The notes beneath the pieces are model-generated. The model made no database searches. It was not told the origin of the DNA and saw only the letters and a program-made list of their open reading frames with translations. A DNA stretch of 64,000 nucleotides from an uncultured Bacilli bacterium (lineage in GTDB: Bacteria; Bacillota_I; Bacilli_A; RF39; UBA660), in the NCBI GenBank assembly GCA_963931545.1, contig OZ007025.1:740312-804311 (forward strand), written 5' to 3'. Positions 40,352 through 44,303 of the stretch are shown here, piece after piece. The translations under genes were made by a program, and so were the position numbers. How positions within the stretch are numbered: position 1 is the first letter of the stretch; each line of letters starts with the position of its first letter.

Positions 40352-41227
40352 TTATTTTCCATGTGGATGAAATTCTTCATAATTTTTTTGTAATCTTTCA
40401 CTAGTAATATGAGTGTATATTTGTGTAGTTGATATATCACTATGCCCAAGTAATTCTTGAATACTTCTTAAATCGGCTCCATATTTTAGCAAATGAGTTG
40501 CGAAAGAATGCCTTAAAGTGTGTGGCGAAAAATCAGTTTTAATGTTATTTTCTAAGGCTATTTTTTTTAATATTTTAAAAAAACCTTGTCTAGTCATCTT
40601 ATTGCCATGATTATTTAAAAATAAATAATTATTTTCTCCATGTTTAAATAAAGTTGCTCTATGATATAAAATATAATTTTTTAAAGCTTCGGATGCATAA
40701 TTGTTTAAAGGAACAATCCTTTCTTTAGAACCCTTACCAAAAATTCTAACAGTAGAGTTCATTAAATCAATGTCATTGACATTTAAATTTATAAGTTCAC
40801 TAACTCTAAGCCCACTACTATACATAAGTTCAAACATAGCTTTATTTCTATAATCATAGTCAGTATTTAAATTAATATCTAATAATTTATTAACTTCTTC
40901 TTCTGATAAAACTTTAGGTAACTTTTGCCTTTTTTTAGGGTTAGTAATAGTAAAGATAGGGTTATTTTTACAATATTTATTTATTTCTAAAAATTTATAA
41001 AAACTTTTTAAAGTACTTATATTTCTTGAAACACTTGAACTATTTTCTTCTTTGGAAATATATTGAATATATGCTTGAATATCATTTTTGGATAGTGTTT
41101 TAAAATTTTTTTTTATGTACTTATCTACCTTAGATAAATCTCTTTTATATGAGGAAATTGTATTTTCGCTATATTTTTTTTCGAATCTTAAATAATCGGT
41201 AAATTTGTTTATTAAATTTTCATTCAT
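40352..41227 (-). CDS. XerC/XerD-family tyrosine recombinase
   Basis: 291 aa. Motifs SGLRVSEL and HTLRHSFATHLLKYGADLRSIQELLGHSDISTTQIYTH. Confidence 0.8.
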   Translation of the reverse strand: MNENLINKFTDYLRFEKKYSENTISSYKRDLSKVDKYIKKNFKTLSKNDIQAYIQYISKEENSSSVSRNISTLKSFYKFLEINKYCKNNPIFTITNPKKRQKLPKVLSEEEVNKLLDINLNTDYDYRNKAMFELMYSSGLRVSELINLNVNDIDLMNSTVRIFGKGSKERIVPLNNYASEALKNYILYHRATLFKHGENNYLFLNNHGNKMTRQGFFKILKKIALENNIKTDFSPHTLRHSFATHLLKYGADLRSIQELLGHSDISTTQIYTHITSERLQKNYEEFHPHGK

Positions 41228-41315
41228 TTCTTAACTCACCTATAATAATTTTATCAAAAAAATGTTAAAAAAAAAAGAACTAAGCATGATATAATAATTA
41301 GTGGATGTGATATAT

Positions 41316-42515
41316 ATGAGACCACTTGCTGATAGTTTAAGGCCTAATAAATTAGATGATGTTATTGGCCAAAAACATTTAATAGGTAAAGATAAAGTTT
41401 TATATAATCTTATTAAACATGGTAAAATATTTTCAATGATTTTATATGGTCCTTGTGGGACTGGTAAAACGACTTTAGCTTATACTTTAGTAAATGAACT
41501 AAATTTAAAATGTGAATTTTTAAATGCTGTTATTAATAGTAAAAAAGATTTAGATTTAGTTATTGAGAAAGCTAAAGTTAATGATGGTATCATTTTAATT
41601 ATGGATGAAATACATAGATTAAACAAGGATAAACAGGATTTATTACTCCCCTACTTAGAAAATGGTTTAATTACTATAATTGGCTTAACGACTGCTAATC
41701 CATATCATTCAATTAATCCTGCTATTAGAAGTAGATGTCAACTATTTGAGGTTAAAGCATTAACGGATAATGATATTGAATATGCCTTGAATAAAGCTAC
41801 TAATTATCTAGATAAAATAAATATTACTGATGAAGCTATATCTTATATAGCAAGATTAGCTAATGGCGATTTAAGATATGCTTATAATTTGTTAGAAGTT
41901 GCTTATTATTCTTCAGAAAATTTTAAAATATCTTTAGAAGATTTAAAAAAAATAAATAATAAACCAAGCTTATATATAGATAAAAATGATGATGGATATT
42001 ATGATGTTATTAGTGCTTTACAAAAATCTATTAGAGGTAGTGATGTTAATGCGGCATTACATTATTTAGCTAGATTAATAGTTGCGGAAGATTTAGATAT
42101 TATATTTAGAAGGTTATCTGTCATAGCTTATGAAGATATTGGACTAGCTAACCCAGCTATTGGTCCTAGATTAGAGGCGGCCATTAATGCAGCTGAAAGA
42201 GTTGGACTTCCAGAAGCTAGAATTCCTTTAGGCGAAATTGTCATAGATATGGCTTTATCTCCTAAATCAAATAGTGCGCACGTGGCTTTAGATATGGCTA
42301 TTAATGATGTTAAAATGGGACATGTAGGTAAAGTGCCAAGTCATATTAAAACTAATTCTAAAGATTATAAATATCCCCATAATTATAAAGGAGGATATAT
42401 TAAACAGCAATATTTACCTGATGAATTGAAAGAAAGAAGATATTATAATCCTAAAACTACCAGTAAATATGAAATGAACTTAAAAAACATTTACGATAAA
42501 ATTAATAATTTGTAA
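41316..42515 (+). CDS. rarA: Replication-associated recombination protein A (AAA+ ATPase)
   Basis: ATG at 41316 gives MRPLADSLRPNKLDDVIGQ. Walker A is GPCGTGKTT. The track GTG start at 41301 is less likely. Confidence 0.85.
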   Translation: MRPLADSLRPNKLDDVIGQKHLIGKDKVLYNLIKHGKIFSMILYGPCGTGKTTLAYTLVNELNLKCEFLNAVINSKKDLDLVIEKAKVNDGIILIMDEIHRLNKDKQDLLLPYLENGLITIIGLTTANPYHSINPAIRSRCQLFEVKALTDNDIEYALNKATNYLDKINITDEAISYIARLANGDLRYAYNLLEVAYYSSENFKISLEDLKKINNKPSLYIDKNDDGYYDVISALQKSIRGSDVNAALHYLARLIVAEDLDIIFRRLSVIAYEDIGLANPAIGPRLEAAINAAERVGLPEARIPLGEIVIDMALSPKSNSAHVALDMAINDVKMGHVGKVPSHIKTNSKDYKYPHNYKGGYIKQQYLPDELKERRYYNPKTTSKYEMNLKNIYDKINNL

Positions 42516-43026
42516 ATGTTTTTATTTTGTTAAATTCTTTACATTTTGCTTCTAATAATATGTAATTACAGCATCTATCTTTTACGTTATTTGGTAATTT
42601 GTTTTTTTGATATAGTTCATATAATAATTTTGATTTTTGATATATATCTTTTTTGTGCGTTGTTAACCATCTTAGTTGGTTTCTAAGTAAATCAATTCTA
42701 AATTTTTCTTGTTTATTGATTGGTTTATCATTTAAATCAAACACAATATAATTTTCTTGAGTCACAGGAATCATATTATTAAAATTTACTACTCCATATT
42801 CCCCATTATTAATTTTTAATAAGTCAATAGTATTTTTTAACTTTTTATGTTTTTCTTTGGGACTGGATAGTGGAGCAAAATATTCGCATTTGTCTATTTT
42901 AAACAATATTCCGACAAATGGTCTAAGTTCTTTATTACCAGCATTATACACCACTCTATTATCAAATTTTCTTAAATAATCACAATAATTAGAATTAACT
43001 TTTACAATTTTAATTTTTTTATACAT
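42502..43026 (-). CDS. toxN: Type III toxin-antitoxin system toxin, ToxN/AbiQ-family endoribonuclease
   Basis: 174 aa. AGGAGG RBS. Family-like N-terminal half: YLRKFDNRV...RPFVGILFKIDKCEYFAPLSSPKEKHKKL. Preceded by a tandem repeat array and a terminator. Confidence 0.75.
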   Translation of the reverse strand: MYKKIKIVKVNSNYCDYLRKFDNRVVYNAGNKELRPFVGILFKIDKCEYFAPLSSPKEKHKKLKNTIDLLKINNGEYGVVNFNNMIPVTQENYIVFDLNDKPINKQEKFRIDLLRNQLRWLTTHKKDIYQKSKLLYELYQKNKLPNNVKDRCCNYILLEAKCKEFNKIKTFTNY

Positions 43027-43093
43027 CAGTTACCTCCTTTTTTGTTAAGTCAAATATATCACAAACAAATGTATTTGTAGATAAAAATCAAAA

Positions 43094-43117
43094 AGATTAG
43101 AGTATGCTCTCTAATCT
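43094..43117 (-). terminator. Internal (attenuating) terminator between the antitoxin repeats and toxN
   Basis: Stem AGATTAGAG/CTCTAATCT with a 6-nt loop, followed by UUUUGAUUUUU on the - strand. Confidence 0.7.
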
Positions 43118-43119
43118 TC

Positions 43120-43235
43120 TTTTTTAGCTGCCATTTATAGAGCTGGCTTCACTCACTTTTTTAGCTGCCATTTATAGAGCTGGCTTCACTCACTTTTTTA
43201 GCTGCCATTTATAGGCTGGCTTCACCTGCTTTTTT
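43120..43235 (-). ncRNA. toxI: ToxI/AntiQ-like antitoxin RNA repeat array (3 units of 37, 37 and 36 nt, plus a degenerate partial unit extending to ~43251)
   Basis: Units 43120-43156 and 43157-43193 are identical. Unit 43194-43229 has a few changes. The transcribed-strand unit is GTGAGTGAAGCCAGCTCTATAAATGGCAGCTAAAAAA. There is no ORF. Confidence 0.7.
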
Positions 43236-43313
43236 AATCGCTATATTTGAGTAACCATACTGGTTATTCAGTATGACTACAAACTTCATTTTTTGAAGTG
43301 TTATAGCATTATT

Positions 43314-43349
43314 ATTATATGCATAAATGAATATAATAAATCATTTATG
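43314..43349 (-). promoter_or_regulatory. Possible promoter/operator of the type III TA locus
   Basis: TATAAT on the - strand (43319-43314) with a poor -35. Perfect 9-bp inverted repeat CATAAATGA-N10-TCATTTATG at 43322-43349, which could alternatively be the holA terminator. Confidence 0.3.
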
Positions 43350-43382
43350 TGAATATAATATAACACATTTTAATAAAAATGT

Positions 43383-44303
43383 CTACTTTAGTATAAAAAG
43401 TTCTAGGGCTAAATCTTTATTTAAAGTACCTGTTTTGATGCCAATATCAATATTTGCTAAATCATTTAAATATTTAAGTAAAGTTTCAGATGTGTAGTTT
43501 CGGCCATTTTGAATAGCTAATTTTACTCTATAAGGATGAATTTTTAAAATACTGGCTATATCTTTTTCACTATATCCTTTTTTAAATAATTCTTTAGCTT
43601 GATACATTATTCTAAATTGATTTGCTAAAATGACTACTATTTTTATGGGCTCTTCGTTCATTTTAAGCATTTCATAATAAAGCTCTAAAGCTCTTTCTTT
43701 ATCTTTTTTTACTATATAATCAATTAATTTAAATATATCTATTTCGATTAATTTGATAGTTAAATTTAATATATCTTCATCAGTAATGTTTTTATCATTT
43801 CCCTTATATATTTTAATTTTATTAATCTCATTTTGAATAATTAATGGGTTATTTCCAATTCTATCTATAAAAAGATTAATTGTTTTGTAATCTATATTAT
43901 ATCCTTTAAACAATTTTCTAACTAGACTAATGGTATCTAATTCATCATTATATTCTAATACTTTACCTTTCTCTTTAATTAATTTTGTTATTTTTTTTCT
44001 AGTATCTAATTTGTCATTATGAACAATAAATATTAATGTAGTATTTTCATTAATGTTATCTAAATATTTTTGAACTATTTCACTATCCTTAGAAGTGGAA
44101 CCTGTAAACATATCCGCATTCTCAATGATAACTACTTTTTTATCTTCAAAAAGTGATAAGGTTTGTGCATCTTCAATAGCAAGTGATAATAAATCATTAT
44201 TTAAATCATATCTACTAATATTCATTTCATCTATATTTTTGCATATCTTTTTAATTTCTTCGTTAATTTGAAATTCTTTTGTTCCATATAACAAATATAC
44301 CAT
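43383..44303 (-). CDS. holA: DNA polymerase III delta subunit
   Basis: 306 aa. N-terminus VYLLYGTKEFQINEEIKKI and overall HolA-like layout. Confidence 0.7.
   Translation of the reverse strand: MVYLLYGTKEFQINEEIKKICKNIDEMNISRYDLNNDLLSLAIEDAQTLSLFEDKKVVIIENADMFTGSTSKDSEIVQKYLDNINENTTLIFIVHNDKLDTRKKITKLIKEKGKVLEYNDELDTISLVRKLFKGYNIDYKTINLFIDRIGNNPLIIQNEINKIKIYKGNDKNITDEDILNLTIKLIEIDIFKLIDYIVKKDKERALELYYEMLKMNEEPIKIVVILANQFRIMYQAKELFKKGYSEKDIASILKIHPYRVKLAIQNGRNYTSETLLKYLNDLANIDIGIKTGTLNKDLALELFILK

Follow-up and report, generated by a model that had tools for sequence, protein, structure and literature searches.

Surveyed type III toxin-antitoxin loci have tandem repeats of 31-62 nt present in 1.9-5.6 copies (PMC3401426, Table 2), with a mean repeat length of 38 nt in toxIN, 45 nt in CptIN and 51 nt in TenpIN loci (PMC3401426). 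The ToxIN systems of Pectobacterium atrosepticum plasmid pECA1039 and Escherichia coli (structures 2XD0/2XDB/2XDD and 7D8O) are plasmid-borne in Gram-negative hosts and have 5.5 repeats of a 36-nt unit, and the Bacillus thuringiensis pAW63 system (4ATO), plasmid-borne in a Firmicute, has 2.9 repeats of 34 nt (PMC5086642). Lactococcus lactis AbiQ/antiQ (4GLK) is likewise carried on a plasmid, in a cultured dairy bacterium. The ToxI_Pa and ToxI_Bt antitoxin RNAs are H-type pseudoknots with single-stranded flanking tails (PMC5086642), and the cleavage sites reported in the family are AA/AU for ToxN_Pa, A/AAAA for ToxN_Bt and A/AAA for AbiQ (PMC5086642). In a stretch of 64,000 nt from an uncultured Bacilli bacterium (assembly GCA_963931545.1, contig OZ007025.1, positions 740,312 to 804,311; hereafter the window), a locus at 42502-43385 on the minus strand was found to have the composition of such a system, and we consider it to be a genuine, chromosomal ToxIN-family type III toxin-antitoxin cassette with a probability of approximately 0.9. 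Protein family, fold, catalytic motif, purifying selection, repeat array, covariation, promoter and terminator conservation, and gain and loss of the cassette were all computed here.

The window locus has the promoter, repeats, terminator, toxin order of the P. atrosepticum and E. coli systems and the same pseudoknot stem and loop template (PMC3401426), and its unit is 37 nt compared to 36 nt; in contrast, it has 3.2 repeats rather than 5.5. The B. thuringiensis system is similar in its Firmicute host, in its short array (2.9 x 34 nt compared to 3.2 x 37 nt here) and in its H-type pseudoknot with single-stranded tails. It differs in the sequence of the unit, which is 3 nt shorter, and in that cleavage and complex assembly have been demonstrated for it and are predicted for the window locus. 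Abortive infection has been demonstrated for AbiQ and is a possible outcome for the window locus. The array of L. lactis plasmid pCV56A (36 nt x 3.1, AAAAAAGCGGTGAATCTCCACCATCAAGTGAGAATC) shares the A-tract and the two interleaved helices of the window array; its units closely resemble the shorter units of the window's subfamily, and its toxin is 40% identical to the window toxin.

The toxin and its relation to characterised ToxN proteins

A preliminary description of the window, made from the letters alone, had proposed that a 174-aa open reading frame (ORF) with several telling peptide motifs encodes a ToxN/AbiQ-like toxin. The ORF and the motifs were found at 42502-43026 on the minus strand, and the predicted endoribonuclease, here called toxN, was assigned to the proposed family by profile, sequence and predicted-fold comparisons. 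Against the Pfam profile ToxN_toxin (PF13958), the hidden Markov model search that the preliminary description had suggested, the product matched with an E value of 1.1e-45 and 156 bits (cut-off 25) over profile positions 2-159 of 159, and ToxN_toxin was the sole Pfam family that matched it. The PADLOC AbiQ model was assigned with an E value of 4e-34. Among sequences of solved structures, the best match was 4ATO (B. thuringiensis ToxN, 2e-16), followed by 2XD0 (P. atrosepticum, 4e-15), 7D8O (E. coli ToxN, 3e-14) and, as the weakest of the four, 4GLK (AbiQ, 3e-9).

The locus had also been described as unannotated. This holds for the RNA but not for the ORF, which already carries the PF13958 tag in public gene calls. 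Plasmid homologues have the NCBI product name 'type III toxin-antitoxin system ToxN/AbiQ family toxin'; a search of NCBIfam gave no family match, so this name probably derives from the Pfam model.

Structure prediction, also suggested at the outset, gave a concordant result. An AlphaFold2 model built with 31 subfamily sequences had a mean pLDDT (predicted local distance difference test) of 87.5 and a pTM (predicted template modelling score) of 0.81. The best four structures found with Foldseek were 7D8O, 2XD0, 4ATO and 4GLK, with template modelling (TM) scores of 0.73-0.78 (0.73/0.78 for the P. atrosepticum and E. coli structures, 0.73/0.76 for B. thuringiensis and 0.74/0.77 for AbiQ); CptN (TM 0.53) and MazF came next and were much weaker. 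The modelled product has the ToxN fold, in which a twisted antiparallel beta core is surrounded by helices, one of them long and kinked. CptIN (Eubacterium rectale, 4RMO) and TenpIN share the type III logic and a distantly similar core fold (probability 0.98, TM 0.53), but neither gave a significant sequence match to the window toxin, and the CptIN complex is a heterotetramer whose RNA pseudoknot differs (PMC5086642). Membership of the CptN or TenpN families was ruled out by the sole Pfam match to ToxN_toxin, by the TM score of only 0.53 for CptN and by the 37-nt repeat.

The active site of ToxN_Pa consists of Tyr29, Lys33, Thr52, Ser53 and Lys55 (PMC5086642), and that of E. coli ToxN of Lys33, Thr52, Ser53 and Lys55 (PMC8860590). 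Four of the five positions are conserved or conservatively replaced in the window toxin, where R35, S54, S55 and K57 align with K33, T52, S53 and K55; the T/S-S-P-K motif is aligned in both. Among 31 aligned subfamily members, R35 and S55 were invariant and S54 and K57 nearly invariant. An Arg at the Lys33 position is also present in ToxN_Bt, and a Ser in place of Thr52 is the state of AbiQ (Ser51; PMC5086642). Tyr29 and Trp57 of the P. atrosepticum and E. coli toxins are without equivalent in the window toxin; the invariant Y27 may stand in for ToxN_Pa Tyr29.

The ratio of nonsynonymous to synonymous substitution rates (dN/dS) of toxN was 0.12-0.24 in comparisons with six relatives of 58-91% identity, and 0.13 against the nearest intact relative. 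These values indicate that toxN is under purifying selection. A protein identical to the toxN product was found on 14 contigs with the same neighbours.

The putative antitoxin array and its predicted pseudoknot fold

Upstream of toxN, Tandem Repeats Finder reported a single array at 43119-43236 with a period of 37, 3.2 copies, 95% matches and a score of 208, and a separate repeat search found one divergent copy besides two identical ones of 37 nt. The array reaches to 92 nt from the toxN ATG. On the minus strand, unit 1 (43200-43235) is a 36-nt variant (AAAAAAGCAGGTGAAGCCAGCCTATAAATGGCAGCT), unit 2 (43163-43199) is 37 nt long (AAAAAAGTGAGTGAAGCCAGCTCTATAAATGGCAGCT) and unit 3 (43126-43162) has the same sequence as unit 2, in agreement with the two identical and one divergent repeats of the preliminary description. 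Four A6 tracts, one more than the number of units, delimit the three complete units, at 43235-43230, 43199-43194, 43162-43157 and 43125-43120. The partial fourth unit reported earlier was found to be this extra A-tract, which closes the array at 43120-43125 and accounts for the '.2' of the copy number; every unit therefore has an A-tract on both sides. The A-run was also the most conserved element of the unit, with two invariant positions and three more conserved in at least 90% of 53 units. Since the characterised members of the family cut A-rich sequence, the A6 tracts are likely processing sites, the fourth being the predicted last one, and by analogy the toxin likely processes the precursor within them. 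The A/AAAA site of ToxN_Bt (PMC5086642) would fit these tracts, and AbiQ cuts A/AAA; the sites of ToxN_Pa (AA/AU) and ToxN_Ec (GAAAU) are not a pure A-run (PMC5086642, PMC8860590).

The preliminary description had called for related genomes to be checked for conservation and covariation of the repeat. The toxN product had 1,941 relatives at E <1e-5, and a one-genome-per-species scan gave 80 loci with toxins 50-81% identical, all of them from uncultured gut Bacilli, Erysipelotrichaceae or 'Tenericutes'-type assemblies. Of the 80 loci, 74 have a 34-40-nt tandem array immediately upstream of the toxin and in the same orientation, and 64 of these 74 arrays have 3.0-3.5 copies. No array was found within 500 nt in four loci (L032, L042, L044 and L070), and a fifth (L090) offers only 139 nt upstream. 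A further locus, L050, from an uncultured Clostridia metagenome-assembled genome, lacks a 34-40-nt array and has a 50-nt x 1.9 repeat approximately 307 nt upstream of the toxin, which was excluded as unrelated.

The fold of the unit was scored on an alignment of 53 distinct genomic units, in which a two-helix pseudoknot was tested. In unit numbering, helix A consists of G9-C23, A10-U22, G11-C21 and U12·G20, and helix B of G16-C33, C17-G32, C18-G31 and A19-U30; in unit 3 of the window these correspond to 43154-43151 with 43143-43140 and to 43147-43144 with 43133-43130, respectively. The order of the arms (A5', B5', A3', B3') is that of an H-type pseudoknot. Standard pairs were found in 88.9% of cells compared to 73.1% in column shuffles, none of 500 of which reached the observed value, and in only 24-46% when the partners were slid by 1-3 columns. 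The number of cells changed on both sides was 60 compared to 20.8 in shuffles, two-sided change affected six of the eight helix pairs compared to 3.9 in shuffles, and the covariation score was 0.403 compared to 0.155 in shuffles and at most 0.10 for slid partners. These counts are conservative, because the structure played no part in making the alignment, in which some 3' arms are off by one column. Changes in helix A ran from GAG/CUC to GGG/CCC to CGC/GCG, and those in helix B from GCCA/UGGC to GGCA/UGCC, UCCA/UGGA and CCCA/UGGG. Within the window itself, helix A of unit 1 becomes AGG/CCU and pairing is preserved.

A nested minimum free energy fold, pairing the 5' arm with the 3' tail, had 83% paired cells compared to 81% in shuffles and only two compensatory cells, and was rejected. 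The minimum free energy of the single unit (z -0.09) was no better than that of shuffles, as would be expected of a pseudoknot, which is beyond the predictions of the program. The geometry of the unit, with stems of 3-4 bp and loops of 3-4 nt (first), 0-1 nt (second; also given as 1-2 nt) and 6 nt (third), fits the ToxI 'Group I' template, in which the third loop is at most 7 nt (PMC3401426). These findings support, by covariation, the prediction that the units fold as an H-type pseudoknot with single-stranded tails.

The same data bear on whether the repeats could act as DNA, in the manner of iterons or operators, or could encode a small peptide. Tandem repeats upstream of genes can be regulatory binding sites, and a 26-aa ORF (43209-43289, minus strand) extends into unit 1. 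It is one of only two ORFs of at least 20 aa between holA and toxN, the other being of 21 aa and also on the minus strand; as the preliminary description had stated, the array is free of ORFs, with none of at least 30 aa. The 26-aa ORF, however, covers only part of unit 1 and starts in the non-conserved leader, and in other type III loci cloned repeats neutralised the toxin without a translatable ORF (PMC3401426). Moreover, array and toxin always share a strand, with a terminator after the array, and the compensatory base changes preserve two interleaved helices, which argues for selection on RNA structure and not on a DNA-binding motif or a peptide. We regard a role as DNA or as a peptide gene as extremely improbable, and the reading of the repeats as an RNA antitoxin is retained.

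The repeat unit had been put forward as a new antitoxin sequence. This was true with regard to Rfam and to the literature searched, where a full-text search for the unit sequence returned no paper (the supplementary tables of the 2012 survey lay outside that search). It was not true of genomes, since a unit identical to that of the window (43126-43199) was found in 11 species-representative loci (L012-L015, L020, L023-L025, L028, L039 and L043) whose toxins are only 68-81% identical, and in 21 loci the unit consensus was at most two mismatches from that of the window. Compared to an L008-type locus, whose toxin is 72% identical, DNA identity was 93% over the array and terminator and 79% over the toxin gene. 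From these comparisons the antitoxin RNA evolves more slowly than the toxin gene, which suggests that neutralisation across species is possible.

Distant relatives of toxN occur on phages and prophages. Those on phage contigs, 38-45% identical, have 3.2-copy arrays (for example AAAAAGTCGGTAAAACCTCAGCCGTATAAATGAGGAGTTG), and a relative on a Clostridium botulinum plasmid has an array of 38-39 nt x 3.2. In this plasmid locus (L107; p1, NZ_CP063823.1, upstream of 695), the middle unit is unlike the outer two (AAAAAGTCGGAGATCCTCTTCCGTATAAATGGGGTTTT compared to AAAAAGTCAGTGAGCCTCCACTGTATAAGCGAGGAGCT), both stems having been rewritten inside one 3.2-copy array. Because the relatives share the design with different letters, the window RNA is a sequence variant in a continuous ToxI class and not a separate kind. 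None of the viral contigs contained the exact repeat pattern, in an exact-match scan that would miss diverged antitoxin mimics.

Expression signals and proposed mechanism

The order of promoter, array, terminator and toxin proposed in the preliminary description was present in the window and in most of the 80 related loci. The best promoter-like match in the region (10/12 with TG) was a sigma-70-type promoter at 43357-43385 on the minus strand, with a -35 box TAGACA (43385-43380), a 17-nt spacer and an extended -10 box TGT-TATATT (43365-43357). The arrangement TAGACA-17-TGnTATATT was conserved in the 83% and 72% relatives, and the sequence of the spacer differed. In the set of 75 loci made up of the 74 array-bearing relatives and the window, the strict promoter T[AT]GACA-N16-18-TAnnnT was matched in 49, mostly with the extended -10 TG.

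The perfect 9-bp inverted repeat reported earlier was present at 43349-43322 (minus strand; CATAAATGA, 10 nt, TCATTTATG; -7.7 kcal/mol, z = -4.8). Its earlier placement in the promoter region is the less likely one, because it lies just downstream of the predicted -10 box and would rather form the 5' end of the transcript. The palindrome was retained in L005 and L110, two loci at the same site, and one arm was deleted in the decayed locus L108 (see below); it is possibly a 5' stabilising hairpin or an operator. A second leader hairpin, with a 12-bp imperfect stem, is located directly upstream of the array at 43280-43251 on the minus strand (-12.5 kcal/mol, z -3.8). In other lineages the leader is shorter and a different small hairpin stands just ahead of the first A-tract.

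The hairpin with a U-tract noted between the repeats and the toxin was confirmed as a Rho-independent terminator (43121-43082 on the minus strand, the hairpin and T-run being reported at 43121-43090), with a 13-bp stem (core GATTAGAG/CTCTAATC), the loop AGCATA and a T-run. A terminator scan gave two terminator-like sites, which are the same hairpin read on either strand, compared to 0.3 expected in shuffles. The folding energy of the hairpin was -14.4 kcal/mol (z = -5.4), and no fold as stable was obtained from 200 shuffles. The sequence of the hairpin was conserved in relatives, and a hairpin with a T-run lay between array and toxin in 69 of the 75 loci. The ribosome-binding site AGGAGG was present upstream of the toxin, as had been described, at 43038-43033 on the minus strand, 6 nt from the toxN ATG.

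By analogy with characterised ToxIN and AbiQ systems (PMC5086642, PMC3401426, PMC8860590), from which the position of cleavage, the stoichiometry, the leakiness of the terminator, toxicity, neutralisation and phage defence are carried over, the locus may work as follows. A single promoter would give a transcript with a short leader and three antitoxin units. The strong terminator would halt most transcripts, leaving antitoxin RNA in excess, and read-through would provide the toxin mRNA. ToxN would then cut the precursor in the A6 tracts into RNAs of 36 or 37 nt. Each RNA would form an H-type pseudoknot with single-stranded A-rich tails and bind two toxins head to tail, and the closed complex, probably a 3:3 triangle, would block the active sites. 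If the supply of the labile RNA failed, as when a phage stops transcription by the host, the freed ToxN would cleave A-rich RNAs and growth would halt. The outcome would be that infection is aborted, or that loss of the locus is penalised.

Several observations weigh against this interpretation of the locus. The nearest characterised toxins are only approximately 25-27% identical across the structural alignment (approximately 27% for B. thuringiensis and 25-26% for P. atrosepticum and E. coli). Nothing in the toxN product aligns with ToxN_Pa Tyr29, which falls in a 2-residue insertion that the product lacks, and residues 29-34, the loop matching the Tyr29 region, are the sole low-confidence stretch of the AlphaFold2 model. 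A leader of approximately 110 nt (43247-43352) with two hairpins separates the predicted start from the array. The sequences on which the pseudoknot was scored were also those from which it had been picked out by eye, which favours it somewhat, and pair 10-25 was unpaired in 20 of the 53 units. Rfam gave nothing relevant, either for the whole window at gathering thresholds or for the locus at E values up to 10; weak matches to InvR and RalA were dismissed, being on the wrong strand and far below threshold. Finally, the cassette sits at a housekeeping-gene site without other defence genes nearby, a context that favours neither phage defence nor addiction.

Gain and loss of the cassette between holA and rarA

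The cassette, of approximately 860 bp (approximately 42524-43385, minus strand), lies between holA and rarA. HolA of the window is 84% identical to HolA of 'Firmicutes bacterium CAG:822', and related genomes showed the same site in empty, occupied and decayed states. At the empty site (L112-L115, HolA 84% identical to that of the window), the TAA of holA is followed by AAACAT and the rarA stop, so that the convergent genes are 6 nt apart. The full cassette was present at the occupied site in the window, in L110 (HolA 87%) and in L005-L007 (toxin 83% identical). At the decayed site (L108/L109, 3919-4103, HolA 96%), what remained was the promoter, a leader shortened by 22 nt, a single degenerate unit and the terminator, and the toxin gene was wholly gone.

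Alignment to the empty site showed that the insert extends from the -35 box to the end of the toxin, approximately 43385 to 42524. In the window, holA stops at the TAG of TAGACA and not at its original TAA, and the old junction sequence AAAATAAAAACATTTACA persists at the right end of the cassette. The toxin reads through this junction and stops inside antisense rarA, which explains both its seven extra C-terminal residues and the 14-nt overlap of the 3' ends of toxN and rarA (41301-42515, plus strand) that had been noted earlier. The last seven residues are IKTFTNY, whereas relatives in other contexts end in ...YNK followed by the stop codon. The host-derived tail of the toxN ORF, composed of the former holA-rarA spacer and the antisense rarA 3' end, occupies 42502-42523 on the minus strand and forms the right-hand junction. 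The ends of the cassette were searched for inverted repeats and for a duplicated target site, and an ambiguous match, AAA(G/A)T in an AT-rich stretch, was all that emerged; it was not considered convincing. A 291-aa tyrosine recombinase with Phage_integrase domains (XerC/XerD-like; 40352-41227, minus strand) adjoins rarA, and is not part of the cassette because it is also present at empty sites.

In a near-identical strain (L116/L117), the A6 run of toxN (window 42654-42649) is replaced by A7. The frameshifted toxin of L116 is 136 aa long (L116 1501-1911), and its array has two units. The truncated 136-aa product was seen in three protein clusters from several samples, which makes an assembly artefact unlikely; the extra A could simply inactivate the gene, could act as a switch prone to slippage or could be an assembly error in the homopolymer. 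Loss of the toxin before decay of the antitoxin is as expected of a toxin-antitoxin pair.

This decay in close relatives, by deletion of the toxin in L108/L109 and by frameshift in L116/L117, together with the lengthening of the window toxin by seven host-derived C-terminal residues, might indicate that the window copy is an inactive relic whose toxin or repeats are no longer expressed or toxic. The window ORF, however, is intact and has the conserved active-site motif, its dN/dS against the nearest intact relative was 0.13, two of the three units are identical, the promoter, terminator and ribosome-binding site are intact, and the identical protein recurs on 14 contigs. An inactive relic is thus improbable, and a working toxin-antitoxin pair remains the preferred reading.

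A working pair could nevertheless serve selfish maintenance, as an addiction module or by stabilising the chromosomal region, and not abortive infection. The cassette is flanked by housekeeping genes, its surroundings hold no other defence genes, and the decayed sibling (L108/L109) has no toxin but retains the promoter, the terminator and a degenerate unit. The near-identical strain has a frameshifted toxin beside two intact units, toxin-first loss fits the logic of addiction, and plasmid stabilisation is a second function described for some type III systems (PMC5086642). On the other side, the characterised ToxIN_Pa and AbiQ are abortive-infection systems (PMC5086642), relatives of toxN occur on phages and prophages, and toxin-first loss is equally expected of a costly defence system. 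We consider maintenance in place of abortive infection to be unlikely on balance, though it is the alternative to be taken most seriously, and the two roles are not mutually exclusive.

The left end of the cassette had a further feature, in that the -35 box holds the stop codon of the upstream gene. The TAG of TAGACA ends holA in the window (43380-43385) and in L005 (2670-2675), and it ends an unrelated DHHW-family gene in L008-L015 (L008 2715-2720); in L026, L077, L078, L082 and L084 the upstream stop is the TGA of TTGACA. A long ORF ends at the TAG of TAGACA in six of 23 TAGACA loci, compared to 1.1% of all TAG triplets. A stop codon inside the -35 box was not accepted as a general rule, since the six of 23 loci represent two independent contexts and the pattern is not universal. 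Either the cassette lands precisely at gene ends, or small genomes trim spare bases.

Two further proposals are speculative. The near-invariant antitoxin RNA might mean that many gut species share one cross-neutralising 'currency', and the A6/A7 run of toxN might be a slippage switch of toxin activity. The combination of both with the idea that the unit of approximately 860 bp is a minimal mobile module, which lands exactly at gene ends where its -35 box gives the upstream stop, is improbable as a whole.

The window cassette is an ordinary member of the known ToxIN family and leaves the understanding of the mechanism of type III systems unchanged. What the analysis adds is covariation data, a series of empty, occupied and decayed sites, and an RNA more conserved than the toxin gene. 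The ToxIN family is extended to a poorly known group of uncultured gut Bacilli with small genomes, relatives of 'Firmicutes bacterium CAG:822', where it is apparently common (arrays in 74 of 80 loci). The 53 distinct natural units constitute an unusually clean covariation test of the antitoxin fold, and the series at one chromosomal site informs on the gain and loss of such cassettes. Standard pipelines do not see the RNA half of such loci, which could be annotated with a covariance model made from these units.

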